Source: a virus
Lineage: Duplodnaviria; Heunggongvirae; Uroviricota; Caudoviricetes
Length of the DNA: 64,000 nucleotides
IMG/VR virus record: IMGVR_UViG_3300047317_000139
Reading direction: 5' to 3' (one strand)
Part shown: in pieces, positions 1,491 through 56,994 of the stretch
Position numbering within the stretch: the stretch's first letter is position 1
Layout: every line of letters starts with the position of its first letter
The notes under the pieces: generated by a model
What the model was told of the DNA's origin: nothing
What the model saw: the letters and a program-made list of their open reading frames with translations, nothing else
Database searches by the model: none
Made by a program: the position numbers and the translations under genes

Positions 1491-2266
1491 GGTTCGGAAA
1501 GTCGGCAGAGGAAGCCGCGGCAGAGCCTGGCCGCGGTGGTGGTGGAGGCGACTTCATCAAGTACCTGAAGGAGGGCGACAACACCGTCCGCATCCTCCAG
1601 GAGCCCACGGAGTGGAAGTACTACTGGGAGCACTTCTCCCCAGCGGGCTTCTCCTTCCCGTGCCCACGGGACAAGGACGACCCCCTGGACATGTGCCCTG
1701 GGTGCAGCAGCGACAACGAGAAGATGAAGAAGGTCAACCGCAGGATCGCCTTCAACGTGCTGCACTCGTTCAACGGCCAGGAGTACGTGGACGCCATGAA
1801 GATCGGCCCGATGGTGGCCGACAAGCTGGACAACCGCTACAAGAGGTTCGGCACGGTCACCGACCGCGACTACACGATCACGAAGTACAAGTCCTCGGGC
1901 GACCGCTGGGACTTCGACGTGGAGGGCAACACGGTCACGCCGATCGACCTGCGCAAGGAGGACTGGAAGGACATCGAGGCCCTGCTCCAGCAGGCCTGGG
2001 ACGACGCCTGGGGTGACCCGAGCCAGGCTGCCGCGAACCGCCAGGCCACCGAGGCCCCGAAGCGCCCCACCATCGCTGCGACCCCGAAGCCACAGCCGGA
2101 GGAGCCCCCTTTTGAGGAGGAGAAGGCCTACAACGAGGCGGACCTTCGCTCCATGGACCACACAGCCCTCGTGAAGCTCATCAACGATGAGATGAAGATG
2201 ATCCCACCGTCGACTCTGACGACCTCTGACGCTGTCGTGGACTGGCTGATGGAGCTCCAGAGCTGA
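1487..2266 (+). CDS. hypothetical replication-module protein (259 aa) with a Gly-rich N-terminus and a 3-Cys FPCP...MCPGC cluster
   Basis: Lies immediately upstream of, and coupled to, the DnaE-like polymerase gene. The Cys cluster suggests metal binding. Function unknown. Confidence 0.5.
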   Translation: MRFGKSAEEAAAEPGRGGGGGDFIKYLKEGDNTVRILQEPTEWKYYWEHFSPAGFSFPCPRDKDDPLDMCPGCSSDNEKMKKVNRRIAFNVLHSFNGQEYVDAMKIGPMVADKLDNRYKRFGTVTDRDYTITKYKSSGDRWDFDVEGNTVTPIDLRKEDWKDIEALLQQAWDDAWGDPSQAAANRQATEAPKRPTIAATPKPQPEEPPFEEEKAYNEADLRSMDHTALVKLINDEMKMIPPSTLTTSDAVVDWLMELQS

Positions 2267-5022
2267 TGAAGATCATCCCGACTCCCAGGTGGCGGGTGGT
2301 ACCTACGCCCGCCCCTGGGTGGTGGTCCCTGCACACCCACTCCCGGTACTCAGTCAACGACGCGATGGCCTCGGTGCCGGCGATCGTGGAGAAGGTAGCC
2401 GCGATGGGCCAGAGGGCAGTGGGTCTGCAGGACCACGGGAACATGGCCGCGAGCGTGGAGCTCTACCAGGCCTGCATGAAGGCCGGCATCACTCCGTTCC
2501 CCGGCTCAGAGATGTACTTCGTCCCCGACACCGCTGGGTACCGCGCGGTACGGGCGAGCAAGAAGGAGGGCCGGGAGAAGGCCACGATGTTCCACATGGG
2601 CGTCTCGGCGTACACCACCGAGGGCTACGAGAACCTGGTCAACCTGAGCACTCGCTCTCACCTGAACCACCACTACAAGCCACTGGTGGACTACCAGATG
2701 CTGGCCCAGCTGGCCGAGGACGGTCGCACTGCTGGGCTCGCGATAAACACCGGCTGTTACTACGGCTACCTGGCTCAGACACTCCTGCATGAAGGAGAGG
2801 ATGCGGCTCGACAGTTCCTGTACACGTTGAGTGAGTGGTTTCCCGACTCGGTGTACGTGGAGATCCAGAACCACAACATCACACACGACGAGGGGACGAA
2901 CGACGATGAGCTGGCTGATGGGCTTGTGGTACTGGCTGACCGAGTTGGTCTCCCCGTGGTCATCACTCAGGACTCGCACTACCTCGACGAAGGCGACCGT
3001 GCCGACCACGATGGGCTCAAACGCCTCGTCTCCTTCGGCCCGGACCCAGACGACGCTGTTTTCCCAGGGGACGGCTTTCACGTATGTGATGCCCAGTGGA
3101 TCGCCGACCGTCACAGTGAACGTCGCCTTGCGCGAGGAGTGGAAGGACTGGCAGATCTCCTCGGTCGCCACACACTCACGATCCCTGTCCTTGACTCTTA
3201 CTCCTACTCGGTCCCGGAGGTAGTCGACAATCCGCAGAAGGCCATGCAGGCCCGATGCGTGGCTGCTCTGGAGGGGATGTTCGCACCGAAGAAGGTGCCA
3301 CCTCGCTACGCCAACCAGCTGCTCGAAGAGTTCAACGTGATCGAGGCCAGCGGGATGGCCGGGTACATGATGCTGGTCAGTCAGGTCACCGACTGGCTGC
3401 GCACCAACGACGTGATGTTCCAGACCAGGGGCAGTGCTGCCGGCTCGCTGGTGTGCTGGACGCTGGGGATCAGCAACGTCGACCCGATCAAGTGGAACCT
3501 GCGCTTCGAGCGCTTCCTGAGCAAGGACCGGACCAAGCCTCCGGATGTTGACCTGGACGTGGCCCACGACCGGCGCGACGATCTGCTCGCGATGCTGAAC
3601 ACCCGGTTCACCGCACACCAGATCGGGTCGTGGGCCACCTACTCCCTCAACGAGACCGTGGACGTGGATGGAGAGACTCAAAGAGGGTCCCTACGGGTGA
3701 GGTACTACTCGGCCTCGGGGAAGAAGGATGACGGGGCCTCCTCCTGGGCCGAGGTGCCTGAGGCAGATCGCGCGATGCTAGTACGCCTCAGCGATCGCCA
3801 TCTGTACAAGGGCATGGGCACGAACGCCGCTGGCATCGTGCTCACCTCGACCCTGGAGGAGTTTCAGCGTCTGGTGCCGATGGCCTGGATGGCACGCAGC
3901 AACAACAAGGGTGGGTTCGTCACCCAGTACAGCAAGGACCAGATCGAGGCGCTGGGACTGGTGAAGCTCGACGCGCTCGGGAGCAAGACGCTCACCGTGC
4001 TGGACCACTGCATGCGGATGCTGGACCTGCCCATCAACCGGATCGGTGACATCGAGTACCAGGACGTGCCCACCTACAACCTGATCCGCAGCGGGTACAC
4101 CGATGGGCTGTTCCAGCTGGAGGGTCGGAGCACCCAGTGGGGTCTGAAGGACCTGAAGCCGACCTCGATCAAGGACGTGATCGCGGCGATGGCACTGTTC
4201 CGTCCGGCCACCATGAACACCGGTGCCACTCGTGCGTTCATCGAGCGCAAGTGGGGTGGCGCAGTGCCGCTGCGGCATGAGCTGATCATGAAGGCCACCA
4301 AGGACACGCACGGGATCATGCTCTACCAGGAGCAGGTGATCGACCTGCTGCGTGGGCTGGGCATGGACGCGGACAACCTGACCAGGTTCCTGAAGGCCGT
4401 GAAGGCCAGCAACAAGGACATCGGATCCGCTGGCGTGGTGATCGAGTCGTACCAGAAGTGGATCCACGAGCGCTGCGAGCAGGAGGGGATGAGCGCTGAT
4501 GACCAGAAGTTCCTCCACGACGCCATCGCCGGCTTCGCCGAGTACGGCTTCAACCGTGCTCATGCGACTGTCTACGGCATCACGGCGTACCGCGCGGCGT
4601 ATCTGGCTGCTCGTCATCCACTGCAGTACCACACTGCGCTCCTGGGCGTCGCGAGCGAGGGAGACAGCAAGAAGGAGAACCGCTACCTCAAAACCACGAA
4701 GCGACGTGGCGTACGAGTCCTCGCCCCCGAGATCAACACCTCAGGAGCCTCCTACACCGTCGATGAGCAGCGTGGAGCCATCCGTCGCGGACTCCAGTCC
4801 ATTGACGGGGTTGGGGCGATCAGCGCCGCTCGACTGGAGGCTCTCCAGCCCTTCCGGGACCTGGACGATCTGGTCGAGCGAGCCGCCGCCCAGACCGTTT
4901 CTGGACACAAGGAGTACGACGGCACTCCCGAGTCACTCACTGGTGTCCTGGGGAAGCTCTACGCCTCCGGATGCCTGACCGTACTGACCAACGTGAGGAA
5001 GATCCACGATGCACAGATGTGA
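2266..5022 (+). CDS. dnaE: DNA polymerase III alpha subunit-like replicative polymerase (compact, 918 aa, N-terminal PHP domain)
   Basis: The N-terminal WSLHTHSRYSVNDAMASV...GLQDHGNMAA...GSEMYF matches the PHP (histidinol-phosphatase-like) domain motifs of DnaE. Length and downstream conservation fit a trimmed phage DnaE. Confidence 0.8.
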   Translation: MKIIPTPRWRVVPTPAPGWWSLHTHSRYSVNDAMASVPAIVEKVAAMGQRAVGLQDHGNMAASVELYQACMKAGITPFPGSEMYFVPDTAGYRAVRASKKEGREKATMFHMGVSAYTTEGYENLVNLSTRSHLNHHYKPLVDYQMLAQLAEDGRTAGLAINTGCYYGYLAQTLLHEGEDAARQFLYTLSEWFPDSVYVEIQNHNITHDEGTNDDELADGLVVLADRVGLPVVITQDSHYLDEGDRADHDGLKRLVSFGPDPDDAVFPGDGFHVCDAQWIADRHSERRLARGVEGLADLLGRHTLTIPVLDSYSYSVPEVVDNPQKAMQARCVAALEGMFAPKKVPPRYANQLLEEFNVIEASGMAGYMMLVSQVTDWLRTNDVMFQTRGSAAGSLVCWTLGISNVDPIKWNLRFERFLSKDRTKPPDVDLDVAHDRRDDLLAMLNTRFTAHQIGSWATYSLNETVDVDGETQRGSLRVRYYSASGKKDDGASSWAEVPEADRAMLVRLSDRHLYKGMGTNAAGIVLTSTLEEFQRLVPMAWMARSNNKGGFVTQYSKDQIEALGLVKLDALGSKTLTVLDHCMRMLDLPINRIGDIEYQDVPTYNLIRSGYTDGLFQLEGRSTQWGLKDLKPTSIKDVIAAMALFRPATMNTGATRAFIERKWGGAVPLRHELIMKATKDTHGIMLYQEQVIDLLRGLGMDADNLTRFLKAVKASNKDIGSAGVVIESYQKWIHERCEQEGMSADDQKFLHDAIAGFAEYGFNRAHATVYGITAYRAAYLAARHPLQYHTALLGVASEGDSKKENRYLKTTKRRGVRVLAPEINTSGASYTVDEQRGAIRRGLQSIDGVGAISAARLEALQPFRDLDDLVERAAAQTVSGHKEYDGTPESLTGVLGKLYASGCLTVLTNVRKIHDAQM

Positions 5023-6642: not shown

Positions 6643-7031
6643 GTGACTGGGAGCCACCCGGGCTGCGGGAGCTGGTCAAGCGGCTGAGCTACAAGCCCAA
6701 CTGGATGATCTACCTGGGCACCGACAACGAGGACGACAGGTGGCTCACCCTGCACATCGTGAGCGAGACCCCGGACTCATACAACACAAAACGGACCGTC
6801 CGGGTGAACCACTCGTTCCTGGTGCCGATGGCCAGCTACAACGAGGTGAACTGGATCGCCTGGCTGTTCGACCGGATCCGGCAGGTGGAGGCGCACGAGG
6901 CCGGCGAGTACTTCATGGTGGACGGGATCAGGGTCTTCGCGCCTCATCACGGCAACGGCGAGGACCCGTACCGGGTCTGGTTCGTGGGTGACTACGCCGA
7001 CACCAGGGTGAAGGCGGGGGAGAGTCGATGA
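6639..7031 (+). CDS. hypothetical protein (~130 aa)
   Basis: ATG at 6639 (MSDWEPPG) overlaps the upstream TGA. The table ORF 6615..7031 probably starts too early. Confidence 0.45.
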   Translation: MSDWEPPGLRELVKRLSYKPNWMIYLGTDNEDDRWLTLHIVSETPDSYNTKRTVRVNHSFLVPMASYNEVNWIAWLFDRIRQVEAHEAGEYFMVDGIRVFAPHHGNGEDPYRVWFVGDYADTRVKAGESR

Positions 7032-7444
7032 AGGTGATCCCGGAGGTCAGAGCTCCGGACCGTAGGTTCAGCCACCGCCTCACCGATGTGGAGACCATCG
7101 AGGGCCTGCCGGACATCGAAGAGCTCCAGGACGAGCTGCTGGGCTACGCCAACGTCATCCTGGGGAGAGCTGACCCGCCCCTGCAGCTGGACGGGTTCTA
7201 TCTCGATCTGATGGAGGTCGCCGCGGTCTACTACGCGCGGGCTAAGGAGATCGACATGCTGATCCACTGGGAGGAGCAGAACAGACGAGTGATCAGGGGC
7301 AGCCCGTACTACCGGTTCCGCACTGGTCAGCTGCGCAGCTTCATGGAGATGGCCAAGATGATGGCGGATCTCGGGAGTAGGAGACTCACCCAGGAACGAC
7401 TGCTCAGTGAGCAGCGGTACGACGCCGGCAACGGTGACTCATGA
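7028..7444 (+). CDS. hypothetical protein (138 aa)
   Basis: ORF table; coupled to its neighbours. Confidence 0.45.
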   Translation: MKVIPEVRAPDRRFSHRLTDVETIEGLPDIEELQDELLGYANVILGRADPPLQLDGFYLDLMEVAAVYYARAKEIDMLIHWEEQNRRVIRGSPYYRFRTGQLRSFMEMAKMMADLGSRRLTQERLLSEQRYDAGNGDS

Positions 7445-7803
7445 TCATCCCGACCTACTGCTGCGGGGAGTGGCGGAACGGACGTTGCTCGTACTGTCCT
7501 GTGCTCAGGGCGCGGGAGCGTGCCATCCACAGTGTTGAAGACCATACTCAGCAGTGGTGGCGGGTAGAGGCGTTCAAGGCAGCAGATCGGGTGATGAGGC
7601 GGATGGAGAGCTTCACCACCGATGACATCTGGATCGACCTGGAGAAGCGGGGAGTGGAAGCCCCACATGAGCCCAGAGCGATGGGCCCGATCATCCGGGT
7701 ACTGACGGGGAGCGGAGAGATCAAGTTCACGGGTAGGTACACCCAGAGCGTGATCCCACGGGGACATGGAAGAACTGTCAAGATCTACACAGTGATGTTC
7801 TGA
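7441..7803 (+). CDS. Cys-rich (CCGEWRNGRCSYCP) hypothetical protein
   Basis: N-terminal cysteine cluster; ORF table. Confidence 0.45.
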   Translation: MIIPTYCCGEWRNGRCSYCPVLRARERAIHSVEDHTQQWWRVEAFKAADRVMRRMESFTTDDIWIDLEKRGVEAPHEPRAMGPIIRVLTGSGEIKFTGRYTQSVIPRGHGRTVKIYTVMF

Positions 7804-7813
7804 GGAGTCAGGC

Positions 7814-8083
7814 ATGAGTGCACAGGTCCTAGAGCGGAACGAGGACTCGCGGGATGAGACGCGAGACGACCTCCACGCGGCGAACAGAGCACGTCTGGTG
7901 GCCAAGGAGCGCTACGAGGCAGCCCTGATGAAGGCGCGGGCAGAGGGCTGGAACAACTCCCAGATCGCACGAGCCCTGGGAGTGAGTGAGGCTGCGGTAC
8001 GCCTGTACTGGAAGCGTCACCCCTACTTGGTCCGCGATCTCTCTACCGTTGTAGAAGTCCATACCAACCGGAAGGCGTCTTGA
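7814..8083 (+). CDS. HTH DNA-binding protein (sigma-70 region-4-like helix: NNSQIARALGVSEAAVRLYW)
   Basis: Helix-turn-helix motif typical of small phage transcription regulators. Confidence 0.45.
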   Translation: MSAQVLERNEDSRDETRDDLHAANRARLVAKERYEAALMKARAEGWNNSQIARALGVSEAAVRLYWKRHPYLVRDLSTVVEVHTNRKAS

Positions 8084-8829
8084 TGAGCACTGTGCATGTC
8101 ATGCACTGCTCCATGCAGTTCTCGGACAACACGGCCCAGAAGAAGGCCGATGCGAAGAAGATCTTCGACCGCGCCAAGACCCGGAAGGTGGGCTGGATCA
8201 CGGGCACCGAGGCGGGGATGGGAGCCAGTGCCGACCTGAGGAAGGCACTCCAGGATGAGGCACGAGCCCACAACTACAAGTTCGTGGTGCACTCAGATGT
8301 CTGGATCGCGGTGAACCGAGAGCTGATCACTCGTGGCTCCTGGGATGACGGCTGGATCGCCACCCTCCCGAGCAGCGCGGGGAGTCAGAAGTTCAGCGAG
8401 CGTGGGCTGGTCTGGGTCCAGTTCGCGAACAAGGAGCTGGGCACGATCAGTGTGGGCTGCAGCCACTACATGACTCATGGCCAGAAGCCCTCTGACGAGT
8501 ACTACAAGGCCAACATCAAGGCGGCCAAGACGATCGGGGACTGGGCCAAGAAGCACGGTGCCGGCTCCAAGATCTGCTTCTACGGTGGGGACCAGAACAT
8601 CCAGGACCGCGATGGCGACACGTTCCGCGGTCAGCCGATGACCTCGCTGGCTGATGAGCTGAAGGACTGGCAGAGCACTGGGCATGGTGCGATCGACGTG
8701 ATCGCCTCCTACGACCACGACGGTCGGGTCAAGGGCAAGTACTGGCGGGTGCTGGATGACAAGGAGTTCTTCCTGAACACCGACCACTGGCTGTGTGAGG
8801 GTGGGTTCGAGGTAGGACCTGTGAAGTGA
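8080..8829 (+). CDS. endonuclease/exonuclease/phosphatase (EEP)-family protein, paralogue 1
   Basis: Carries an N-terminal HxxHCSxxF motif, a GGDQN (GDxN-like) motif and a C-terminal NTDHW (SDH-like) motif. It is clearly homologous to 9376..10332. Confidence 0.5.
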   Translation: MMSTVHVMHCSMQFSDNTAQKKADAKKIFDRAKTRKVGWITGTEAGMGASADLRKALQDEARAHNYKFVVHSDVWIAVNRELITRGSWDDGWIATLPSSAGSQKFSERGLVWVQFANKELGTISVGCSHYMTHGQKPSDEYYKANIKAAKTIGDWAKKHGAGSKICFYGGDQNIQDRDGDTFRGQPMTSLADELKDWQSTGHGAIDVIASYDHDGRVKGKYWRVLDDKEFFLNTDHWLCEGGFEVGPVK

Positions 8830-9113
8830 CCTGGCTGGTGGCCCTGGTGATGGCCATGACGGGCTCAGTCAGCCCACACGAGTTCAGGCAGCTCGACCTG
8901 GGGATGACGCGCTACCGCGTGCATCACATCACCGAGGCGACCGGGGTCAAGGTCGCACCTGGGGAATGGCGCTACCGGACCTCACTGGGCATGGGCACCA
9001 AGGTGGTGCTGGACTTCACCAGAGCGCACAAGGAAGACCCGATGCGACTCACGCAGAAGCGCTGGTGCACCAGGGACTTCACTCCGGTGTGGACCTGCCA
9101 GCACCATCCCTGA
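8826..9113 (+). CDS. hypothetical protein (95 aa)
   Basis: ORF table; its stop abuts the operator repeats. Confidence 0.4.
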   Translation: MTWLVALVMAMTGSVSPHEFRQLDLGMTRYRVHHITEATGVKVAPGEWRYRTSLGMGTKVVLDFTRAHKEDPMRLTQKRWCTRDFTPVWTCQHHP

Positions 9114-9170
9114 GTGATATCACCACGAGTGATATCACCTGTGGTTTGATATCACCATGAGTGATATCAC
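9114..9170. promoter_or_regulatory. four tandem copies of the 10-bp perfect palindrome GTGATATCAC (one as TTGATATCAC) spaced about 15-18 bp apart: a putative operator array
   Basis: Read directly: ...tgaGTGATATCACcacgaGTGATATCACctgtggttTGATATCACcatgaGTGATATCACcaag. The last copy overlaps the ATG of the RHH gene. GATATC is otherwise expected to be very rare at this GC content. Confidence 0.55.
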
Positions 9171-9366
9171 CAAGAAGGCCATCATCGTGCGGCTACCTGA
9201 GGAGTACGTGACCCTGATCGACATCAGGGCCAAGGAGCGAGGGATCTCTCGGAACGAGTGGTTCACGAGGATGGCCAAGTACGGGCTCTTCGAGAGGGAC
9301 AAGGTCCAACAGCCGTCTGAGAAGCCCACGGCGAAGCGCAAGTTCGTGGTCAACCCCAGCGGATAA
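9157..9366 (+). CDS. ribbon-helix-helix (CopG/Arc-like) DNA-binding protein
   Basis: The segment KKAIIVRLPEEYVTLIDIRAKERGISRNEWFTRM has a beta strand followed by two helices, the typical RHH pattern. The operator array lies directly upstream. Confidence 0.6.
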   Translation: MSDITKKAIIVRLPEEYVTLIDIRAKERGISRNEWFTRMAKYGLFERDKVQQPSEKPTAKRKFVVNPSG

Positions 9367-9375
9367 CCTGAGCAC

Positions 9376-10332
9376 ATGGCCAACCTGCCGAGCTTCCACC
9401 ACATCCACTGCAGCTCCAGGTTCGACCGCTCAGCTGCCTCTCTGGATGCTGACATCACCGACTGGCAGACCAAGAGCTCTCTGATCACCCTCACCGAGGT
9501 GGAGGACGACCATCGGGCCTCACAGCTGCGGGCTCAGGGCTGGGGCTACTACGCCTGCAAGCTGGGCCCGTACGCCGCGGATGGTGCGATCGGCTGGGAC
9601 ACCACGAAGTGGAAGCAGCTGCACGGTGCGGTCAGGAAGCTGAGCAAGCACACCTACATGCGCGCGTACTCCAAGCGAGTCACCTACATCTACTCAGTCA
9701 CTGCAGTACTGAAGCGTGTGGACACCGGCCACAAGCTGCTGGTGAGCGTGGCCCACTTCCCAGCCCACATCGAGGGGCAGAACGGCTGGCGCACCGATCT
9801 GGAGAAGTGGAAGGCCCGCAAGGCCACCTACCTGGATGCGCTGGGTGGCTGGTCGAACCACGTGAACGACCAAGTGCGCAAGCAGCACGTGGACGCAGCC
9901 CTGCTGGTAGCTGACTGGAACCTGAACCTGAAGGAGAACTGGGTCAGGAGCACGATCATGGATCACTGGGGACCGAGCTGGCACCTGGCCTGGCAGGCGT
10001 TCCCGACCTCTGGTGGAAGCATGCACGGCGGGCCTGTAGCGCCTCTGGGAGCGCCTGGGGTGAGCAAGGGCGACCGGATCATCGACGGGAGTCTGTACCA
10101 GGGCCTGAAGGTCGACACGCCACCCAACCTGATGGCACGGGTGAGCAGCTCGGACCATCGCCCGTACCAGGAGCGGTTCACGTTCGCGGACAAGGCCGAG
10201 AACCCGATCACTGCCCCAGCCTCAGGTGACATCAAGCACGGTGATGCGTGGTGGGGCTTCGGGGACTACATGACCGATGAGATCTACCCGACCCCAGCTG
10301 CGACTGGAGACGCCGGCGGCGAGGTGCTGTGA
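9376..10332 (+). CDS. endonuclease/exonuclease/phosphatase (EEP)-family protein, paralogue 2
   Basis: FHHIHCSSRF aligns with VHVMHCSMQF of the 8080 gene. It carries ADWNLN (GDxN-like) and a C-terminal SSSDHRPY (SDHxP-like catalytic His motif). Confidence 0.5.
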   Translation: MANLPSFHHIHCSSRFDRSAASLDADITDWQTKSSLITLTEVEDDHRASQLRAQGWGYYACKLGPYAADGAIGWDTTKWKQLHGAVRKLSKHTYMRAYSKRVTYIYSVTAVLKRVDTGHKLLVSVAHFPAHIEGQNGWRTDLEKWKARKATYLDALGGWSNHVNDQVRKQHVDAALLVADWNLNLKENWVRSTIMDHWGPSWHLAWQAFPTSGGSMHGGPVAPLGAPGVSKGDRIIDGSLYQGLKVDTPPNLMARVSSSDHRPYQERFTFADKAENPITAPASGDIKHGDAWWGFGDYMTDEIYPTPAATGDAGGEVL

Positions 10333-10333
10333 G

Positions 10334-10714
10334 ATGGCCAAGGTCATCACCAGCGTCACGATGGGAGATCGGGCGTTCCGACTCCGTCAGGAGCTGGGCT
10401 GGTCTGGGGACCTGCTGGGTCGGCACATGCGGAACGCAGGTCACTCCCACTGGCAGCACGCTCAGGTGTACATGACCGAGGCAGGCACTCGGCACCTGCG
10501 GGTCTACGAGGCCTACTCGCTGGCAGACATCCTGCGTGTGTCTCTAGATGACCTGGCTTTCGGGATGGAGGGCGATGACATCTCTCTGATGCTGGCCAGC
10601 AAGGCGCGCAAGCTGATGGAGGAGCGGGAAGTGCTGCAAGAGCGTCTGGTGAAGGTGGACAAGCTGCTGCTGGGCTACAGACTGCGCGATCTGCGTAACT
10701 GGGAGGTCTCATGA
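10334..10714 (+). CDS. putative DNA-binding regulator (HTH-like; possibly Cro/CI-type)
   Basis: ATG at 10334 immediately follows the upstream stop. The protein is basic with a helical N-terminal segment and lies in the regulatory region. The table ORF 10277 starts inside the previous gene. Confidence 0.4.
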   Translation: MAKVITSVTMGDRAFRLRQELGWSGDLLGRHMRNAGHSHWQHAQVYMTEAGTRHLRVYEAYSLADILRVSLDDLAFGMEGDDISLMLASKARKLMEEREVLQERLVKVDKLLLGYRLRDLRNWEVS

Positions 10715-10809
10715 AGGACTGGCAGTTGGTCATCCTCGCTGCTGGAGGCGGTGTAGTGACTGCGATCGTGTTCTGCTATCTGCTGTTCAACTGGGTGTTC
10801 GGTCCCTGA
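10711..10809 (+). CDS. small single-TM membrane peptide (32 aa, MKDWQLVILAAGGGVVTAIVFCYLLFNWVFGP)
   Basis: ATGA overlap with the upstream stop and one hydrophobic helix. It is too short for the ORF table, so read directly. Confidence 0.35.
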   Translation: MKDWQLVILAAGGGVVTAIVFCYLLFNWVFGP

Positions 10810-10921
10810 AAGAAACCTGAAGATGGTGTCTGCGGACTATGGCCGACACGCCGAATGACGTGGTACCCCTGATGGGTCAACTGCGGGGGAGATGCCCTCG
10901 TACACGCACGGGGGAGAAACC

Positions 10922-11360
10922 CATGAACTTGCCCATCAAGTCTGCTCTGGCATCGGTAGCGAGTATCGCTGCAGTCGGAGCGTTCGCCATTCCGGCCCAT
11001 GCCGACAGCAACTCCGACTTCATCCACAAGACCGTCACTCGCTCCGCCACGCACCGGATCGCCTACGTGAAGATCACCGTGGAGTGCTCGGATGACACCG
11101 ACTCGGCTGCGCTGTCGGTGCGGCTCACCCAGGTCACGCCTGCCGGCACGGTGCAGCAGGCCACTGGAGCTCAGACCAACATCGGTGGCTTCGAGTGCAC
11201 CGGTGACCCGGAGTCGGTGACCGTGGCCGTGCGTCGTCCGACTGGTGGGTACAACTGGCAGGCCGGAACGGCTGTGGCTGACCACGCCGTGTTCGTCACG
11301 CACGACCCGAGCGGCACCTACTTCTCCTCCGCCTCACGGCGTACGGTGACTGTGAAGTAG
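10922..11360 (+). CDS. Sec-secreted protein (146 aa; signal peptide MNLPIKSALASVASIAAVGAFAIPAHA)
   Basis: The RBS gggggagaaaccc precedes the ATG. There is a clear N-terminal signal peptide with an AHA cleavage motif. The mature part is beta-rich with two Cys. The table ORF 10839 starts too early. Confidence 0.5.
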
Positions 11361-11363
11361 CCC

Positions 11364-11410
11364 CCCGGAACGGGAGGGCTCGTTACCCGAGAGACGGGCC
11401 CTCCTCCGGG
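11364..11410 (+). terminator. imperfect GC-rich hairpin downstream of the secreted-protein gene (terminator-like, no U-tract)
   Basis: Inverted repeats CCCGGA/TCCGGG and GGAGGGC/GCCCTCC enclose a short inner stem. It lies right after the stop at 11360. Confidence 0.25.
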
Positions 11411-11431
11411 AGCTCGGGACGGAGGTGAACC

Positions 11432-11524
11432 ATGAGCAACGATGCATTCCACTGGATCGTGGTGATCTCACTCATCGTGATCATCATCCTGCTGGCCCTT
11501 CCTCTGCGCACCAGGGTCAGATAG
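11432..11524 (+). CDS. small single-TM membrane peptide (30 aa, MSNDAFHWIVVISLIVIIILLALPLRTRVR)
   Basis: A GGAGGTG RBS lies 5 nt upstream. It has a hydrophobic core and a basic C-terminus, and is locally lower in GC. Confidence 0.35.
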   Translation: MSNDAFHWIVVISLIVIIILLALPLRTRVR

Positions 11525-11539
11525 GGGTACGGTCCGCAC

Positions 11540-11971
11540 ATGATCAGAAAGCTCGCGGCCGTCGTCGCCGTACTCGCTGCCATGGGGCTGACCACGCTCG
11601 GCTCCTCCACTGCTGCTCACGCGGACCCGTGTGACCACCACGGACACGGACATCCTCCGTTCTGTCCTGGACCTCCGCCTCCTCCGCCCACCCCGACTCC
11701 TGCTCCGACCTGCCACAAGCTGATCGTGGGCTCGGTCCACAACGATGTGCTGTTCGGCACCCGCTGCAACGACGCCATCTACGGGCGCGCGGGCAACGAC
11801 CGTCTGATCGGACGTCGCGGGAACGACCGCCTCAACGGTGGCCTGGGCAACGACGTCCTGCGCGGTGGCCCTGGGCGTGACGTGCTCAACGGTGGCCGGG
11901 GCAAGGATCTGTGCTTCGGGTCCAACAACGACATCTTCCGGAACTGCGAGAAGGTGTTCGTGCTCGGATGA
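11540..11971 (+). CDS. secreted protein with RTX/hemolysin-type Ca-binding nonapeptide repeats (beta-roll) and a His/Cys/Pro-rich segment
   Basis: The signal peptide is MIRKLAAVVAVLAAMGLTTLGSSTAAHA. There are five consecutive GGxGxDxLx-like repeats (GRAGNDRLI, GRRGNDRLN, GGLGNDVLR, GGPGRDVLN, GGRGKDLCF). An upstream DHHGHGHPPFCPGPPPPPP segment is also present. Confidence 0.55.
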   Translation: MIRKLAAVVAVLAAMGLTTLGSSTAAHADPCDHHGHGHPPFCPGPPPPPPTPTPAPTCHKLIVGSVHNDVLFGTRCNDAIYGRAGNDRLIGRRGNDRLNGGLGNDVLRGGPGRDVLNGGRGKDLCFGSNNDIFRNCEKVFVLG

Positions 11972-12048
11972 GCATCCTCTGGATCCTGGTGATCGTTGTC
12001 CTGGTGTTGGTCCTGGCGGGGTTCTTCAACAGCCGTCGCCGGCGCTAG
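11968..12048 (+). CDS. small single-TM membrane peptide (26 aa, MSILWILVIVVLVLVLAGFFNSRRRR)
   Basis: ATGA overlap with the stop of the RTX gene. It has a hydrophobic helix and a poly-Arg tail. Confidence 0.35.
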   Translation: MSILWILVIVVLVLVLAGFFNSRRRR

Positions 12049-12502: not shown

Positions 12503-12985
12503 ATGACCCTGATGGGGGTCGACCTGGGCATCCACAAGGTCGCCTGCTTCGTGCCTGGGGGCCGACCTGATGCTCAGATTCTGGAGAGCAGCGTGGGCTC
12601 CCGCGCGCTGCAGCTGTGTGAGCTGAGCTCGTTCGTGCATGACATGGCCGGCCTCCATCAGGTAGATCAGGTGTGGATCGAGGACACCCTGATCGGGAAC
12701 AACCGCAAGTACTCGATCCAGCTGACAGAGGTCAGGGGAGCTGTGATGGCTGCCCTGGCCCTGCATGCTGACGTTCGTCTGGTGAACGTCGCCACCTGGA
12801 AGTCGCAGGTGCTCGGGGATGGTCATGCCTCGAAAGATGCGGTGAGGGACTACATCCATGTCACTCACCCTGACTATGCTGCGCTCTGTGGGAGCAACCA
12901 GGACCTCTACGACGCCTGCAGCATCTCCCTCTACGGACTCCAGATCAGAGAACGGGCCTCCGGGCTCCGCCTGGTCTCTGGATGA
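12503..12985 (+). CDS. ruvC: RuvC-like Holliday junction resolvase
   Basis: The N-terminal MGVDLGIHKVACFV matches the RuvC GIDPG-like first motif. WIEDTLIGNN and a C-terminal DACSISLYG (DAxxxAL-like) add support. The size is right, and phage RuvC-like resolvases are common. Confidence 0.55.
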   Translation: MTLMGVDLGIHKVACFVPGGRPDAQILESSVGSRALQLCELSSFVHDMAGLHQVDQVWIEDTLIGNNRKYSIQLTEVRGAVMAALALHADVRLVNVATWKSQVLGDGHASKDAVRDYIHVTHPDYAALCGSNQDLYDACSISLYGLQIRERASGLRLVSG

Positions 12986-13010
12986 CTGGCTCGATGAGAC
13001 CGGGCAGCGG

Positions 13011-13472
13011 ATGCCCGACGAAGACTCCGAGCGATGGGTCAGCTACAACATCTCCGACCTCTACCCCGAGTGGCAGCTGCAAGCACACTGCGCCGGCGTA
13101 GGGGTCTCGTACTACTTCGGGGATGAGGAAGAGCAGCCCACCATGTCGATCCGACAGGTGCGAGCTGCAACTAAGCTCTGCGACGTCTGCCCAGTCTTCA
13201 CAGAGTGCCTGACGTGGGCGTTGTCCACGCGCGAGGAGTACGGAGTCTGGGCAGGCACCTCAGGCCGAGTGCGTCGCCGGATCTTCAAGATGATGGACAA
13301 TGGCGAGACCACGGTCCAAGACGTGGTGGAGGAGTTCCGTAATGGACGAGGTCACACCTATCGAATCGGCGAAGCGACGCCCACGAGCTCGGTCAGCCGG
13401 CTTGGCCAAGGAGATCGAGGACAAGGCGCGCGAGGCCTACCAGATGCAGATCGCGGGGAAGCTGCCATCTGA
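13011..13472 (+). CDS. whiB: WhiB-like (Wbl) Fe-S transcription regulator
   Basis: Four Cys in WQLQAHCAG...CDVCPVFTECLTWAL followed by GVWAGTS (GVWGG motif) and a basic GRVRRRI patch. The start is uncertain: 13011 is the first in-frame ATG after the ruvC stop, and the table ORF begins at 12858 inside ruvC. Confidence 0.65.
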   Translation: MPDEDSERWVSYNISDLYPEWQLQAHCAGVGVSYYFGDEEEQPTMSIRQVRAATKLCDVCPVFTECLTWALSTREEYGVWAGTSGRVRRRIFKMMDNGETTVQDVVEEFRNGRGHTYRIGEATPTSSVSRLGQGDRGQGARGLPDADRGEAAI

Positions 13473-14224: not shown

Positions 14225-14559
14225 TGGAGAGCGCCTGGGGTATCGACCACGGTGAGGTGAGCAAGGGATGGGGTGGAGACGTAGCCAGGAAGACGGCCAA
14301 CGCGGCCACCAAGGCGCGCTTGAAGGCCCCCAAGACTCCTCGCTCGAACGCGAGAAACGACTACTACCAGCGTGGGACGCGGAAGTTCCGGAACCTGACT
14401 GAGCGCAGCCACCGCAACGATGAGACTGGCCAGCACAAGATCTCTCCCATGCGTTCTCGGGCCTTCGCACCGCTGGAGCGGCAGTATCCGGCCTACGGTG
14501 GTCGCACCGGGTCGAACTGGGAGTTCAACGGGAACAAGCGCGTGAGGAAGGCCTTCTGA
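14224..14559 (+). CDS. basic protein carrying the N-terminal MESAWGIDHGEVSK motif (family member 1)
   Basis: ATG at 14224 (or GTG at 14221) overlaps the upstream stop. The protein is very basic and probably disordered. The N-terminal peptide is shared with the proteins at 34933, 40038 and 40340. Confidence 0.5.
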   Translation: MESAWGIDHGEVSKGWGGDVARKTANAATKARLKAPKTPRSNARNDYYQRGTRKFRNLTERSHRNDETGQHKISPMRSRAFAPLERQYPAYGGRTGSNWEFNGNKRVRKAF

Positions 14560-15236
14560 TGGCGAACGTCGTACGGCTGGTCAACGGCGGGTCGATCCAG
14601 GTCCGCACTGGAGTCATCCAGGGAATCGGACCTCAGGGCCCGCGTGGTGTGGCCGGTCCTCAGGGGCCTGATGGTCCGGCTGGTCCGATCGGTGACCCTG
14701 GTCCGCAGGGACAGATCCTGCAGCTCCAGGGGATGAGCTCGGTGTCGTCGAACAACCCACTGTCTGCAGGCGCGGACACGGTGCTGGCCTTCGGCTCGGT
14801 GAGCTACGACGACCTGTCCGCTTTCACCTCCACCTCCAACATCACCCTGACCGCTGCTGGGGACTACCTGCTGTCGACCTGGGTGCGCTTCGACGCAGCC
14901 ACGGCCACCAAGCGCGAGGTGTGGTTCCAGACCGGCGGCTCGACCATCGCCCGGAAGTCGGTGATGGCTGACACCGGGATCTTCTACGTGGACCTGGCGA
15001 TGCCGTTCCGAGCTGCTGGTGGGGAAGTGGTCAATGTGCACGCACTCTCCGCCGTGGCCACGGGCATCTCCATGGGCTCGGTCTCGGTGACCCGTGTTGG
15101 GTCTGGGCCACCGGGACCACAGGGGCCTGTTGGACCTCAGGGACCGATCGGCGCGACTGGCGCTGCTGGTCCGACTGGTCCTGCGGGCACGGCGAACGCC
15201 GGGTTCACCTCGTACGCCCTGCTGCTTCCCCACTAG
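14559..15236 (+). CDS. collagen-like repeat protein (Gly-X-Y tracts at both ends, globular middle)
   Basis: GPQGPRGVAGPQGPDGPAGPIGDPGPQGQ at the N-terminus and GPPGPQGPVGPQGPIGATGAAGPTGPAG at the C-terminus. Confidence 0.6.
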   Translation: MANVVRLVNGGSIQVRTGVIQGIGPQGPRGVAGPQGPDGPAGPIGDPGPQGQILQLQGMSSVSSNNPLSAGADTVLAFGSVSYDDLSAFTSTSNITLTAAGDYLLSTWVRFDAATATKREVWFQTGGSTIARKSVMADTGIFYVDLAMPFRAAGGEVVNVHALSAVATGISMGSVSVTRVGSGPPGPQGPVGPQGPIGATGAAGPTGPAGTANAGFTSYALLLPH

Positions 15237-15245: not shown

Positions 15246-18200
15246 ATGACGTTCGACCAGGCGCAGTCTCCGCGTCTGGGCCAGCGCACTCCGGTCGAGT
15301 CCACCTACGTCCGGATGTTCTCCGGGACAGAGATCCCGGAGGCTGCCTGGCCCGGTCAGCTCATCTTCCGCTCGGACGAGAAGATCCTGCAGGTCTACGA
15401 CGGTGAGGCTGAGGCCTGGACCGATGTCGCGGGTGGAGTGGCTGGTCAGCTCACCTTCATCGGTGCCACTCAGCCGGTAGCGCAGTCGGTCGGGGACACC
15501 TGGTACGACTCCGACGACAACTACAAGCTCTACGTCTGGGATGGCAGCTCCTGGAACGTGGCGGTGGCGGGAGCTGTGGCCGGCACGGTCACGGAGTACT
15601 CGGTCAGCTCCAGTGAGACGGTGGCTCCCACCACTGGCTGGTCCACGTCCACGCCTACTCGCGCGCCTGGGACGTTCATCTGGGTGCGCACCACCAGCAC
15701 CCGCATCGACGGTACGAGCACCACCACCAACCCGGCCCTGATGACGGGCAACACGGGAGCGACCGGCCCGCAGGGATCAGCTGGGCCGCAGGGCATCCCA
15801 GGTCCTACCGGACCGAACGGCCAGCCGCTCTACACCTGGACCAAGTACGCGGACACGCCGACCACTGGGATGAGCGACAGCCCGACCGGGAAGACCTACC
15901 TCGGCCTGTCCTACAACCAACCCAACCCCACCGAGTCCAACGTCTACTCCGACTACCAGTGGTCGCTGATCGTGGGACCGCAGGGTGTGCCTGGACCAAC
16001 TGGTGCTGACGGTCAGCCGACCTACACCTGGATCAAGTACGGCACCAGCTCCACGGGCGCTGGGATCAACGACGATCCGACTGGCATGACCTACATGGGC
16101 ATCGCCTACAACAAGACCACGCCCACCGAGTCCACCAACCCCGCGCTGTACGAGTGGAGCCTGATCCAGGGTCCGCCTGGGGCGAACGCGGCCACCATCA
16201 CGCTCACCTCCACCACTCAGATCCTCACCTCTCCCTCGGGCGGAGGTGCGACCACGCCGGCGACTGCCACGGTCACTGGCACTGCGGTGAACACCACGAT
16301 CTCGGTCTGGGACTACAGCGTGGACAGCGGGGCCTTCTCTACCTCACTGCCTGCGGGCGTGTCGCGGGCCGGGAACGTGGTCACCATCACCGGTGCCACG
16401 ATGACCGCCAACACGATCGCGGTCCGGATGGGGAACGGCACGATCGCGGACACGCTCACGGTGGCCAAGGTCTACAACGGTGCGACTGGAGCCACGGGCA
16501 ACCCGGGCAGCACAGGTGGCACGGGTTCACCTGGTGCCGACGCCTACACGGTGCTGCTGACCAACGAGGCGGCGGTCTTCCCGGGCACGGTCACCGCAGC
16601 CATCGCTGGCAGCACCACCAGCAGCGTGCTGGCCTACAAGGGCGCGACCCGCGTCGCTGCCACGATCGGCACGATCACTGGTCAGCAGCCTGGGCTGACC
16701 ACGGCGATCACCAACAACGGGACCACCACTGCGGGGATCACGATCACCGTCACCACCTCGTTGACCCTGGCCGGCACTCTGGTCATCCCGATCACGGTGG
16801 ATGGGATCACCTTCAACAAGCAGTTCGCCTGGACGGTCAGCTTCACTGGCGCTACTGGCAACACCGGAAGTACTGGCCCCACTGGTCCGACTGGCGGCAC
16901 TGGCTCGCCCGGAGTCAGCGTCACCGCGATGACCCCGTACTTCGCCACGGTCACCTACGGAGCAGCAGCTCCCACCCAGCCCACCAACCAGGCGACTCCG
17001 CCTGCGCCCTGGGCCACTCTCGAACCGGCCTACACGGTGGGCACCGAGCTGTACCGCACCGACAAGTCCACTTACTCCGACGCGCACTACAGCTACTCGG
17101 TGGTCACCAAGGTCTCTTCGTACGCCGCTGTCGCCACCGACAACCTGCCGCCCACCAGCTCGCCCACACCCGAGGTGATCGCTGGGATCGGTGCGTTCTT
17201 CCTGCGCTGGCCGGCGATCACCAACCACGACCCGGTGGCCTACGAGGTGCACGTCAGCGACACCTCTGGGTTCACCCCAGACACCACTCCTGGCCCTACC
17301 AGCACCACGCGCTACACCACTACCACAGGGTTCTCGGTCACGGTGCGCAACCTGATCCCGGTCGACCAGGCCACTGGACTGCCCACCGCGTTCAACTACG
17401 GCCAGCCGTACTACTTCAAGATCCTGTCCCGAGACTCTGACGGCCCCTGCTCCGCGGGCGCGGGTGCGCAGGTAACTGGCACGATGCAGCCGATCACCGG
17501 CGAGGACATCACGGTGGGCTCGGTGCTGGCGGAGCACATCGTGGGTGGCACGCTGACCGGAGACCTGTTCAGTGGCCAGGTCTTCTTGGGGTCCACGATC
17601 AGTACCGGCGCGCTGAACCCGGATGGCACGATCTCGGGCGCACGGGTAGAGCTCAGCCCGCTGGGGCTGTTCGTCTACGACCAGACCAACACCCAGATCA
17701 CCGGCTTCCCACTGGACCCGTCTCAGGACGCTTTCGTCAAGCAGGCGCACTTCGACATGCTGTCGGCGGACGTGCAGAACAACTTCACCATGCACGGCAC
17801 CAACAACCAGATCGCCACCGAGGCCGAGCTGACGCTGGCCGCTGGGGTCACGGCTCCGACCGCGCAGCCGACCCTGGCTGCGGTCTACGACACGGTGCAG
17901 CTGGACCGGACCAACGCCTACCCGCCGCACAGCCCAGCGACCGACTACAACCTGGGCACCTTCGCGCTCGATCCCTCCCAGATCACCTCGATCGCCTGGA
18001 TCACTGCCTACGGCGGCTACTGGGCGGTGATCCAGCAGAAGTCCGCCGGGTTCCGGATCTGGCGGTTCAACGCCAATGGCACGGTCAAGGCCAACCCGGG
18101 CACCGGTCGACCCTGGCTCGACGACTGGAACGGGCGGACCAACTGCTTCGTCTGCTACGACCCGGTGGGCGGGGACCTGGTGACCCTGTTCCAGCAGGGC

Positions 18201-21200
18201 ACCGGGTACTTCCTGTTCGGCTACACCCCGACCGGGACCAGCATCATCAACTTCATCCCGGCCAGCTGGATCCTGGACTCGGCCACCCGTCCGCCCGGGC
18301 TCGCGTACGACGCTGCTGCCAGCCGCTACATCATGTTCCAGTCCAACGGCGGCGCGAACGGCACGCTGCACGTACGTCGGTTCCACGGTGTGGTCGGGTC
18401 GGGCGGACTGTGGGGCACAGCAGTCTCGGACAGCACTACGCAGAGCGCTGCTGGTGGAGGCCTGTCCCAGCGGCTGCACGGGCTGGTCTACGGCACCCAG
18501 GTCGGTGGGGCGAACCGGTACGTCATCGACGCCGACACCTACCTGCAGAACTACATCTTCGACACCTCGTGGGTGCAGAAGAACACCGATGGTGCCTACG
18601 AGCAGTGGTCCAAGCCGGCTGCTGCTCGCGGGTTCTGCCACAACGGCTCCCAGTTCGTCTCGGTGGACGCGACCGGGAAGATCACCTTCTACACGAACTG
18701 GAACTGGCCCCAGTCCAACTCGACCATCTACGTCGGGGCCTCGGCCATCGCCACCAGGCCCGCTCCGGACTACGAGACTCCGGTTGGCGCACTGGCCAGC
18801 ATCAGCCAGGCGCGACGGGCCAAGCTGATGATCACGATGCCCGAGACCGGGGACACGGGGGCGACCGCCTCTCCGAACCAGTGGGGTTTGTACTACCAGC
18901 GCAGCGCCACCGCTCTCACGGGCGGTTCGGGGATGAAGCAGATCGGGCTGATCGGTGCTGCATCAACTCCGTCCAGCGTCACGATCACTGCTGACCCCAC
19001 CGGAGCCGCGCCGGCGTTCGGCCTGGACGGGAAGCCCGACGCGAACTACTCCAGCTTCCCGGGCGCGAACCCGGCGCAGCTGACCAGCTACGCCTTCGAC
19101 GGCGTAGGCCCGCTCATCCAGCTGAACGGGGATGGCTCAGGACGGCTGGGATCGGCGTACTGGGACACCAACGGGAACTGGACCGGGATCGGCAGCGGTG
19201 GTGCGACCACGCTGGATACCTACACCCTCGCTGCCACAGCGGGCCTGACGCTGACCAATACCGACACCGACATCCCCGGGATGTCCACGTCGGTATCCGT
19301 GGGAGGGCCCTCGGATCGGTTCCTGGTGGTAGCCGCGTTCGACGCGCGTACTGCGGGAGCAGGCGACAACTCGGTGATGTCAGGGAAGCTGGTGGTCGAC
19401 GGCACGGCCCAGGTTGCGGTAGCGACCTTCAACAGCGGTAGCACGGCCAACCTTCGTGCCACGGTGCACCAGAGCTGGGTGATCAGCGGGATGGCCGCGG
19501 GCAACCACACGTTCAAGGCTCAGGCCTCGCAGGTCAACAGTGGCACGATCACCCTCAGCACGGTCCACACCAGGATGGTGATCGTCAAGCTGGTCGGCCC
19601 ACCCGGACCGAAGGGCGACAAGGGCGACACCGGAGCTACCGGATCTCAGGGCGCGACCGGAGCTACTGGTCCGACTGGAGCCACTGGTGGCCAGGGACCG
19701 ATCGGTAACACCGGACCACAGGGTGCTACTGGAGCTCAGGGGCCACAGGGTGCGACTGGAGCTCAGGGCATCCAGGGTCCGACTGGTAACACCGGTGCTC
19801 AGGGCACGGCTGGTGAGAAGTGGTTCTCGGGTGCCGGCGCTCCCTCGGGCGCGACCGGGGCAGTCAACGACTGGGACCTGGACACCACTGCCGGCGACAT
19901 CTACGAGAAGACCGGGGCCTCGACCTGGACCCTGCGCGGGAACATCAAGGGCCCACAGGGCACCACGGGAGCGACCGGTAGCCAGGGCATCCAGGGACCC
20001 ATCGGCAACACCGGTGCCACGGGTCAGGCCGAGGGCTGGTGGGGTGGTGCTGGAGCTCCGTCTGGAGCCACGGGAGCGGTCGGGGACTGGTACCTGAACC
20101 AGACCAACGGGGATGTCTACGAGAAGACGGGAGCGAGCGCCTGGACGCTGCGCACCAACATCACCGGCCCCGCTGGTCCTACCGGTGCTCAGGGCCCGCC
20201 AGGAGGCTCCTCAGCGGGTTCTGTGAACGTGGTGGACGAGACCACGCTGGTGGTCTCCAACGCCACCCAGATGTCTTTCAAGGGCACCGGCGTCACTGCG
20301 ACTGCTGGAGTGGCTGGCGAGGCCGTGGTCACCATCCCCACTCCTGCTGCGCTGCCTCCGAACGGGGCTGCAGGTGGAGACCTGGGTGGGACCTACCCGA
20401 ACCCCACGGTGCCTGCCCTGACGACCAAGGTGAACACCTCGGCGGTGGGCTCGGCCAGCGGTGTCGCCTCCCTGGACGGCAGCTCCAAGGTCCCGATCGC
20501 TCAGATCCCCACCGGACAGACCTCGACTACGGTCCCGCTCGGCAACGACACCAGGTTCACTGACGCCCGGACTCCGACCGCGCACGCGGCCAGCCACGGC
20601 TCTGGGCAGGCAGACGCGGTTCTGCTGAACGCCAACCAGATCAGTGCCGGGATCATGGGCGTGAACCGGCTGGGCAACAACCCGCAGGTCACCACCTACC
20701 TGAGAGCGGCTGGAACCTCGGGCGCTCCTGACTGGGTGTCGACGGCCACGGCGAAGACCGATCTGGGAGCTGGAGCAGCCAGCGGCCTGGCCACTCTGGA
20801 CGCCACTACCCGAGTACCGCCGGCGCAGCTCCCGCTGATGGGTGGCGGGAACCTGCTGGTCAACTCCAACTTCATCGAGACCACAGGGCTAGCGGCCAGC
20901 AACTTCGGCAGTGCTGCGATCACCCAGGAGACCACCACCACCTGGCGCAACGGGCGCGCGATGCGGGTCACCTCGTCCAACGCCAGCAACGCCTTCGGGA
21001 TCGGCAGCTACGCAGTGGTCAGCGAGACGGTCGCAGCTGGGAACCGGTTCGCTCCGAACACCGCCTACACGTTCACGATGTGGGTCTACAACCCGACTGC
21101 GAGTGGCACTGCGCAGGTCGCCATCATCACCACCGGCGCTGGGATCACCACCAACCCGAGTGCTACTACCACGGTCAAAGACACCTGGACTCGGCTGTCG

Positions 21201-54943: not shown

Positions 54944-54964
54944 GTGCTTCCCTTCGGTTATGGG

Positions 54965-55005: not shown

Positions 55006-55066
55006 GCGGGGGTCGGTTGTCCCGGACCCCAGGCCCTACCCGAGGGCAGGACCGGGGCCCGGGGGT

Positions 55067-56208: not shown

Positions 56209-56261
56209 GGCAGACCCCGGTAGGAAGAGGCTCGGGGCGCTCTCCCTACCGGGGTGGTTGG

Positions 56262-56990: not shown

Positions 56991-56994
56991 GACC

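Follow-up and report, generated by a model that had tools for sequence, protein, structure and literature searches.

Enzymes of the endonuclease/exonuclease/phosphatase (EEP) superfamily hydrolyze phosphodiesters, including those of nucleic acids, sphingomyelin and inositol phosphates, and the EEP fold is well known, as are the modular endolysins of phages and the small ribbon-helix-helix (RHH) proteins that regulate their own genes. Here, we examine a locus in an IMG/VR virus record, IMGVR_UViG_3300047317_000139 (Caudoviricetes), that encodes two EEP-like proteins, denoted A and B, with an RHH-like gene and an array of palindromes between them; the 64,000-nucleotide stretch of DNA that was analyzed is referred to below as the window, and the positions of its relevant features are collected in Table 1. 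The explanation that accounts best for the locus as a whole, to which we assign a probability of roughly one-half, is that A is a lysin-type envelope phosphodiesterase, B is a second EEP enzyme, and the RHH gene together with its operator is an optional cassette.

Among the described systems, the modular endolysins of actinophages provide the closest comparison for A. In these phages, Lysin A combines a peptidase with an amidase or glycosidase and a wall-binding domain, and A domains share polypeptides with such enzymes or are encoded next to them, although the A of the window is a separate gene located far from the M23 peptidase of the same genome. Removal of a non-peptidoglycan wall component to complete lysis, as proposed here for A, would parallel the role of the Lysin B esterase, but the chemistry of A would be phosphodiester hydrolysis, rather than the hydrolysis of an ester, amide or glycoside. 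Cleavage of phosphodiesters in wall glycopolymers or glycoconjugates, likewise proposed for A, is performed by GDPD-domain tail lysins, pneumococcal Pce and GlcNAc-PDase; however, the folds of GDPD and Pce are unrelated to EEP, whereas the GlcNAc-PDases are secreted bacterial enzymes for which no sequence relationship to A or B was detected. Compared with the EEP superfamily at large (PF03372/cd08372), A and B lack the motif-I Asn, and B additionally contains a Gly/Pro-rich loop and a conserved disordered tail. Finally, the RHH-like protein resembles the Arc/Mnt/CopG autoregulators in its small size, its N-terminal β-strand followed by two helices, and the palindromes that extend over its own start, but it falls below the Pfam cut-off, and the gene that it putatively regulates encodes an EEP enzyme.

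Against this background, what appears to be new is a large EEP subfamily, so far unannotated, whose first motif is non-canonical and which recurs as a module of actinophage endolysins, no lysin with an EEP-fold domain having been described in the literature searched; a further EEP family, often paired with A, whose members share a conserved tail; and a portable RHH-operator cassette located directly 5' of B in a few phages.

Fold and active site of A and B

Both genes are present on the same strand at the positions given in an earlier note on this DNA, with the start of A probably being the ATG at position 8083 rather than the codon at 8080, because an identical database protein (P0105) consists of 248 aa. 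The assignment of both products to the EEP superfamily, likewise made in that note, is supported by predicted structures and by the conservation of catalytic residues. The AlphaFold2 models, each based on a 45-sequence alignment, reached a predicted local distance difference test (pLDDT) score of 97.3 and a predicted template-modeling (pTM) score of 0.94 for A, and 78.6 and 0.78, respectively, for B, where the core exceeds a pLDDT of 90 and disorder is predicted for the loop 212-232 and the tail 283-318. Both models display the four-layer α/β-sandwich that defines the EEP fold, with TDP2, the Bacteroides EEP proteins 3g6s and 3mpr, and neutral sphingomyelinase as the structurally nearest proteins; the sequence identity of A and B to any solved EEP is 9 to 18%.

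The catalytic residues of A are E44 (motif II), H129 (III), D171/N173 (IV), D227 (V) and D235/H236 (VI), and those of B are E41 (II), H127 (III), D180/N182 (IV), D237 (V) and D260/H261 (VI). All of these are located at strand ends and are invariant or nearly so in the 45-sequence family alignments; the GDxN-like and SDH-like motifs pointed out earlier correspond to the DxN of motif IV and the DH of motif VI in both proteins. The departure from the canonical active site concerns motif I, where the Asn at the end of strand β1 is replaced, in both families, by a conserved H-x-S-x-x-F. The longer motif HxxHCSxxF, on which the earlier note relied, is indeed present in both window proteins, but only H-x-S-x-x-F is conserved across the two families, the first His and the Cys not being conserved among A family members.

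Neither A nor B matches any Pfam family, including PF03372, to which five of the 45 B family members (best E value of 4.1e-7) and no member of the A family could be linked. Because profile searches of solved structures, whether with the two families or with the single B members that match PF03372, returned no EEP chain, the residues were mapped using the topology of the AlphaFold2 models and a MAFFT alignment with gp5 of Streptomyces phage Yosif, with the canonical motifs of which the catalytic residues of A and B line up. Yosif gp5, the only relative of the B family found in a cultured phage, is listed in UniRef as an endonuclease/exonuclease/phosphatase domain-containing protein, has the EEP fold (BFVD, E value of 2e-12) and scores 19 bits with the B profile; it differs from B in retaining the canonical motif-I Asn, in lacking the B tail and in its length of 232 aa, the similarity being remote. 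Its gene is located between those for a protein with two transmembrane (TM) segments and the terminase. Identity of either protein with TDP2 was rejected, given that the motif-I Asn of the TDP2 catalytic tetrad and specific sequence similarity are both absent. The models and alignments are best explained if A and B are very divergent metal-dependent phosphodiesterases with intact catalytic residues.

The earlier statement that the locus corresponds to no named system agrees with the lack of Pfam, PHROG and PADLOC matches for A and B. In tblastn searches, neither protein matched anything among 50,697 phages or 72,556 plasmids, and DNA searches of these collections with the two genes were likewise empty; A, the 95-aa open reading frame (ORF), the RHH-like protein, B and the 126-aa ORF had no match in PADLOC-DB 2.0 at E ≤0.01.

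A and B had also been described as about 30% identical products of an old duplication. The first part of this claim could not be reproduced: the best BLASTP E value was 0.39, an hhalign comparison of the two family profiles paired all motifs over 223 collinear columns at 19% identity (E value of 0.013, probability of 3%), and reciprocal searches with hidden Markov models (HMMs) gave scores below 10 bits. As to the second, the shared H-x-S motif apart, A and B are not demonstrably nearer to each other than to other EEPs. As far as sequence comparison can tell, A and B are EEPs with a common unusual first motif, and a specific duplication is not demonstrated.

Family A and peptidoglycan hydrolases

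A profile search of 1.84 billion representatives retrieved 454 A family clusters at 50% identity (E ≤1e-3). This is a metagenome-only actinophage family, not found in deposited phages, and because neither Pfam nor PHROGs detects it and no cultured-phage database contains it, its members are currently annotated as "hypothetical". About one fifth of the fetched members are fusions: 208 proteins consist of the EEP domain only, whereas extensions are present at the N terminus in 51, at the C terminus in 5 and at both ends in 1. Among 54 long family members, Pfam identified GH25 in 15, Amidase_2 in 11, Peptidase_M23 in 2, and CW_7 and PG_binding_1 in 1 each, and further matches to Amidase_2 and M23 were found in A family fusions beyond those 11 and 2.

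The genomic context was analyzed in 49 loci fetched via the A family and 25 fetched via the B family, in which the genes were mapped with local HMMs and clustering. Single ORFs combine PG_binding_1, GH25 and EEP domains in L003, a metagenome-assembled genome of Actinomycetota; GH25 and EEP in L026 and L033; Amidase_2 and EEP in L004 (Aeromicrobium) and L034; and, in the reverse order, EEP and Amidase_2 in L037 and L038, with all partner domains scoring above the Pfam gathering cut-offs. In these fusions, too, the catalytic residues are invariant. Peptidoglycan hydrolases are also encoded as separate proteins next to A: HMMs of the fusion partners detected a standalone Amidase_2 gene followed by A in L039 and a standalone M23 gene followed by A in L022, L023 and L041, and in L028, A is followed by a putative peptidase and then by GH25. 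In many loci, representing at least three unrelated terminase contexts, A is located just 5' of a small gene and the terminase and portal genes; one of these contexts is a bona fide prophage of Nocardioides pini (STR2; L002), with genes for HNH, Terminase_4, TerL and portal proteins. Lysis genes of lambda-like phages often occupy such a position. Signal peptides of the Sec or lipoprotein-like type were detected in 2 of 264 A family members.

Two clusters of partner segments can be described separately. The segment of cluster extc1 (13 members, including L003 6552-8786, P0166, P0174 and P0185) is about 140 aa long, precedes the EEP domain and has no Pfam match; its Cys...His pattern is suggestive of an NlpC/P60- or CHAP-like peptidase. 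Cluster extc3 has five members, at least one of which matches Amidase_2.

Given the family-wide fusions and the adjacency to peptidoglycan hydrolases, a role in lysis or at the cell envelope is the best-supported reading for A, and the same evidence disfavors the nuclease, defense and toxin-antitoxin functions that the earlier note had considered for it. A would most likely be an accessory lysis phosphodiesterase acting on a phosphodiester of the cell envelope, rather than a DNA nuclease. The A of the window is itself a single-domain protein, fusion to lysin domains being a feature of the family, and would thus represent an unfused version of a module that many related phages have incorporated into their endolysins. 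We infer that, during lysis, it attacks a phosphodiester bond in the envelope, for which a teichoic-acid-type wall polymer, the muramic-acid-6-phosphate linkage unit of such a polymer, or a phospholipid head group would be candidate substrates, and that it would help a peptidoglycan hydrolase, here probably the M23 peptidase of the window, to open the wall, in parallel with LysB and LysA of mycobacteriophages.

Nocardioides possess teichoic acids and a peptidoglycan with Gly-bridged LL-diaminopimelic acid. The proposal that A would cleave an actinobacterial envelope phosphodiester draws on the chemistry of EEP enzymes and on several precedents: the EEP GlcNAc-PDase family hydrolyzes glycoconjugates in which GlcNAc-6 bears phosphocholine or phosphoethanolamine (PMC10704324); enterococcal phages are reported to have tail lysins that target teichoic acids via a fold unrelated to EEP (PMC10194240); and a BFVD search revealed an EEP domain in the predicted tail fiber of Citrobacter phage CR8. 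A more specific version, which we put forward tentatively and hold to be somewhat less probable than its negation, is that A, with its His/Ser first motif, is a new EEP endolysin module that cuts a teichoic-acid-type wall polymer or its phosphodiester anchor to peptidoglycan and serves as a counterpart of LysB for Actinomycetota without mycolates, such as Nocardioides, and that B would be a tail-targeted enzyme of the same pathway that is sometimes switched by the RHH protein. If these proposals are correct, phosphodiester cleavage by an EEP domain would be a new chemistry among endolysin modules; phages of teichoic-acid-bearing Actinomycetota would depend for lysis on the removal of an anionic wall polymer or lipid, paralleling LysB; and A-type enzymes could serve as enzybiotics or as reagents for cell-wall analysis.

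Several observations weigh against an envelope function of the two window proteins. In the window, A adjoins no peptidoglycan hydrolase, the M23 gene being 15 kb away, and A and B are flanked by replication/recombination genes: the 918-aa ORF at 2266-5022 is the counterpart of DNA-polymerase-III-alpha-like genes in L001, and a RuvC gene (12503-12985), followed by WhiB, is located downstream of B. Furthermore, B was never fused to lysin-type domains in any family member found, and Yosif gp5 adjoins the terminase, while the annotated Yosif endolysin is encoded far away. Under the alternative to which this setting would point, A and B would be nucleases or phosphodiesterases of replication or recombination, engaged in end cleaning of the TDP2 or apurinic/apyrimidinic-endonuclease type or in the degradation of host DNA, which corresponds in substance to the nuclease function considered in the earlier note. 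We consider this alternative unlikely, the lysin fusions and the neighboring hydrolase genes of the A family arguing for the envelope; if so, local synteny alone, with replication genes on both sides, would have yielded a wrong "nuclease" annotation.

Another alternative, compatible with the fusions in that they show the EEP domain to act together with lysins, is that the lysin-associated domain is a DNase freed at lysis, which would degrade host or extracellular DNA and thereby lower viscosity or break the biofilm matrix for virion escape. The altered motif I, however, makes a standard mechanism of the DNase I or ExoIII type less likely, and in most fusions, the EEP domain occupies the C-terminal position, the usual place of the wall-targeting modules of lysins. 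Although secreted EEP DNases do exist, an example being Vibrio Xds of PF03372 (mentioned in PMC12833820), no DNase domain was encountered in endolysins in the literature searched, and we regard a lysis DNase as improbable.

Family B, the variable slot and the RHH cassette

The B family is smaller, with about 113 clusters even when the profile was broadened. In the absence of lysin fusions, the case for an envelope role of B, which we consider plausible, is built on association and on the shared first motif. As the second EEP enzyme of the locus, B would probably act on a substrate class related to that of A; a role in nucleic acid metabolism is a live alternative. The most distinctive feature of the family is the C-terminal tail (residues 283-318; positions 10256-10332), which consists of a variable Lys-/acid-rich linker, the motif WWGFGDYxDDExY, 6 to 12 further residues, and GGEVL. 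The tail is near-invariant, with the terminal GGEVL present in most members, and yet is predicted to be disordered; judging by this pattern, it is probably a docking or targeting motif for a partner or target. A YxxxE pattern is present in it as well, along with a GGE close to the C terminus.

The B gene frequently, although not invariably, follows A at a short distance. The two genes co-occur in 15 distinct contigs, on the same strand and with A on the 5' side; these are mostly close relatives, on contigs of some 80 kb. B is lacking in about 35 A loci and is found without A within 8 kb in L051, L054, L059, L060 and L062. In the window, the 95-aa gene, the operator array and the RHH gene that the earlier note placed between A and B are all found there, the last as an RHH-like gene. 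The content of this interval varies among the relatives, however: it is empty in L012; contains a methyltransferase-like gene in L005, L006 and L011 (L011 3011-3577; E value of 4e-4) and a GDSL/SGNH hydrolase in L008 through L010 (L009 8758-9348; Pfam E value of 4e-13), which could be another wall-modifying esterase; encodes small TM peptides in L014 and L025; and elsewhere holds other orphan genes or the RHH gene. Because the genes thus differ in this variable slot, the arrangement EEP-RHH-EEP is not a conserved system, and the gene maps of the related loci rule out an obligate module of this kind. The repressor-gated module of both EEPs envisaged previously is therefore not sustained, considering the variability of the slot, the presence of the RHH gene in four contigs only, and the location of the cassette downstream of A, because of which it cannot gate A.

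Other tandem arrangements were observed among the relatives. In L057 (7173-7931) and L063 (5531-6289), as well as in L064, L065, L066 and L075, a compact, tail-less B-like paralogue of about 253 aa is encoded directly 5' of B, and phages with this B-like and B tandem pair lack A. The paralogue of L057 scores 132 bits with the B profile and 14 bits with the A profile. The presence of such a paralogue directly 5' of B in several relatives indicates that tandem EEP genes are a recurrent theme. In L051, the B of which is 75% identical to that of the window and thereby the nearest among the fetched loci, the place of A, upstream of the RHH gene, is taken by a 268-aa ORF (6937-7740) that matches neither the A nor the B profile. 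It contains EEP-like motifs that include the canonical Asn (CSHNML, GYQEA, INVHP, GGDYNGD and NTDH); Pfam and hhalign gave no support to an EEP assignment. This ORF may represent a non-orthologous replacement of A by a third EEP.

The identification of the RHH-like protein combines a weak Pfam match with the architecture of the operator. The match to RHH_1 (16.4 bits, compared with a cut-off of 20.5; E value of 0.0086) is below threshold, as are those to CopG_antitoxin (E value of 0.026) and HicB (E value of 0.034), and phrog_13890 was matched with an E value of 2e-4. The RHH repressor of the earlier note is supported by the tandem palindromes at the start of its own gene, with a Pfam score below significance. 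The four palindromes are spaced 15, 17 and 15 bp apart from start to start, and the last one overlaps the ATG of the RHH gene. GATATC occurs four times in the 64-kb window, each time within 9114-9170, a count reached in none of 100 shuffles. The array was also the only terminator-like match in the region 7400-11600, where a sigma-70 promoter scan, of a type not suited to actinobacterial promoters, identified no promoter.

The cassette is present in 4 of about 25 related contigs, namely, the window, L051, L025 and L014, and is always located directly 5' of B, with a gap of 7 to 11 nt between the RHH gene and B in three of the four and of 146 nt in L014. Whereas L051 and L025 carry the same palindrome as the window, L014 has the palindrome GTGGTACCAC, adjoining a diverged RHH gene with a different β-strand sequence. 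This covariation of operator and protein supports a self-contained autoregulatory cassette, of which it would be a clean example, and the distribution among the contigs identifies the cassette as an optional, portable insertion in the variable slot. The RHH protein would bind the four palindromes over its own start and autoregulate a unit that extends from its own gene through B and the 126-aa ORF to the TM peptide; thereby, the cassette may gate B and the small membrane-protein genes downstream.

The same layout, with palindromes over the RHH start and B following after 7 to 11 nt in three of the four contigs, is reminiscent of type II toxin-antitoxin loci, and taken together with the weak matches to CopG_antitoxin and HicB, it could be read as a toxin-antitoxin-like or abortive module in which a toxic B phosphodiesterase is neutralized or repressed by the RHH protein. 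However, most B genes have no RHH gene upstream, such that the two do not obligately co-occur; the gap in L014 is 146 nt; there is no PADLOC match; and B does not belong to a known toxin family. The chance that this reading is correct appears very small. Equally remote, in our estimate, is the prospect that A, B or both are anti-defense enzymes that degrade cyclic oligonucleotides or isomers of cyclic ADP-ribose, by analogy with EEPs of the PDE12, Nocturnin and ANGEL2 type, considering that no EEP-fold anti-defense enzyme was found in the literature searched, that the structural likeness is generic to the superfamily and that the lysin fusions of the A family would be left unexplained. A defense system was rejected, as there is no PADLOC match.

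The window and its neighboring genes

The window has a GC content of 61 to 67% and is phage-like. Its only DNA-level matches, which are faint, are to Streptomyces phages, and the best match of its terminase, with nothing closer, is a Microcystis phage protein with 20% identity, so the phage cannot be assigned to a known cluster. The window is best explained as part of the roughly 80-kb genome of an uncultured actinophage, the relatives of which include the prophage in Nocardioides pini. The genes at 7814-10809 form a tightly packed run of ORFs, all on one strand (Table 1).

Table 1. Positions of the genes and sites of the A-B locus and of the M23 peptidase gene in the window
Feature	Position	Strand	Remarks
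89-aa sigma-70 region-4-like helix-turn-helix (HTH) protein	7814..8083	+	Pfam HTH_23, E 1.9e-6; Sigma70_r4_2, E 7.2e-6
EEP protein A, 248 aa	8083..8829	+	249 aa if translated from the TTG at 8080
95-aa ORF, function unassigned	8826..9113	+	start overlaps A stop
Operator-like array of four 10-bp palindromes	9114..9170	.	GTGATATCAC three times, TTGATATCAC once
69-aa RHH-like DNA-binding protein, putative autoregulator	9157..9366	+	weak profile matches and operator architecture
EEP protein B, 318 aa	9376..10332	+	EEP core, Gly/Pro-rich loop 212-232, predicted disordered C-terminal tail
126-aa ORF, possible HTH protein (unconfirmed)	10334..10714	+	start 1 nt after B stop; not conserved
32-aa single-TM peptide	10711..10809	+	hydropathy scan; start overlaps preceding stop codon
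M23 peptidase, standalone, 146 aa	24079..24519	+	Pfam Peptidase_M23, E 1.3e-24

The stop codon of the 89-aa HTH gene overlaps the start of A (TGA/ATG), and this gene, assigned to family f9, is located directly 5' of A in 10 related loci. The 95-aa ORF, in contrast to it, had no family match and no homologue in the related loci, being a singleton in the locus clustering. It is separated from the RHH gene by 43 bp, and B starts 9 nt after the RHH gene. The XRE/HTH regulator that the earlier note placed after B was not recovered: a weak match to HTH_31 (E value of 0.04) was obtained only with an over-long ORF, and nothing with the likely 126-aa product. The small TM peptide predicted to follow was confirmed as hydrophobic.

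Small TM and secreted proteins are encoded 0.4 to 2 kb downstream of B. In the cluster of small envelope-directed proteins at 10711-12048, the TM peptide of Table 1 is joined by another at 11432-11524 and perhaps by one more at about 11968-12048. Two proteins of the cluster have signal peptides, one encoded at 10839-11360 and the other at 11540-11971, the latter with RTX calcium-binding repeats (Pfam E value of 6e-24).

The M23 gene is overlooked when only the longest ORFs are considered, because minus-strand ORFs overlap it. Its product matches the local HMM of extc4, a partner domain of A family fusions, with an E value of 4e-57. The putative genes for the small and large terminase follow just downstream of it. 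Neither searches with GH25 and Amidase_2 nor a Pfam analysis of ten minus-strand and other ORFs revealed another endolysin in the window; an M23-like segment is also present inside the 1897-aa tape-measure protein (44051-49744, plus strand).

Further downstream of B, the genes for the RuvC-like resolvase (E value of 3e-6) and the WhiB-like regulator (12858-13472, E value of 2e-17) overlap by about 128 nt as listed, and the actual start of WhiB is probably further downstream. Between this region and the terminase lies a 2288-aa ORF (15246-22112, plus strand), preceded by a gene for a collagen-repeat protein (14559-15236, plus strand; Pfam Collagen, E value of 4.5e-8). At the far end of the window, a block of minus-strand genes (54419-63604) encodes an HNH endonuclease (54419-54943), a 530-aa AAA ATPase (58043-59635) with a weak, partial likeness to the defense ATPase IetA (PADLOC E value of 4e-11), and an SPFH/Band-7 protein (62678-63604), and may be an accessory or defense-related island.

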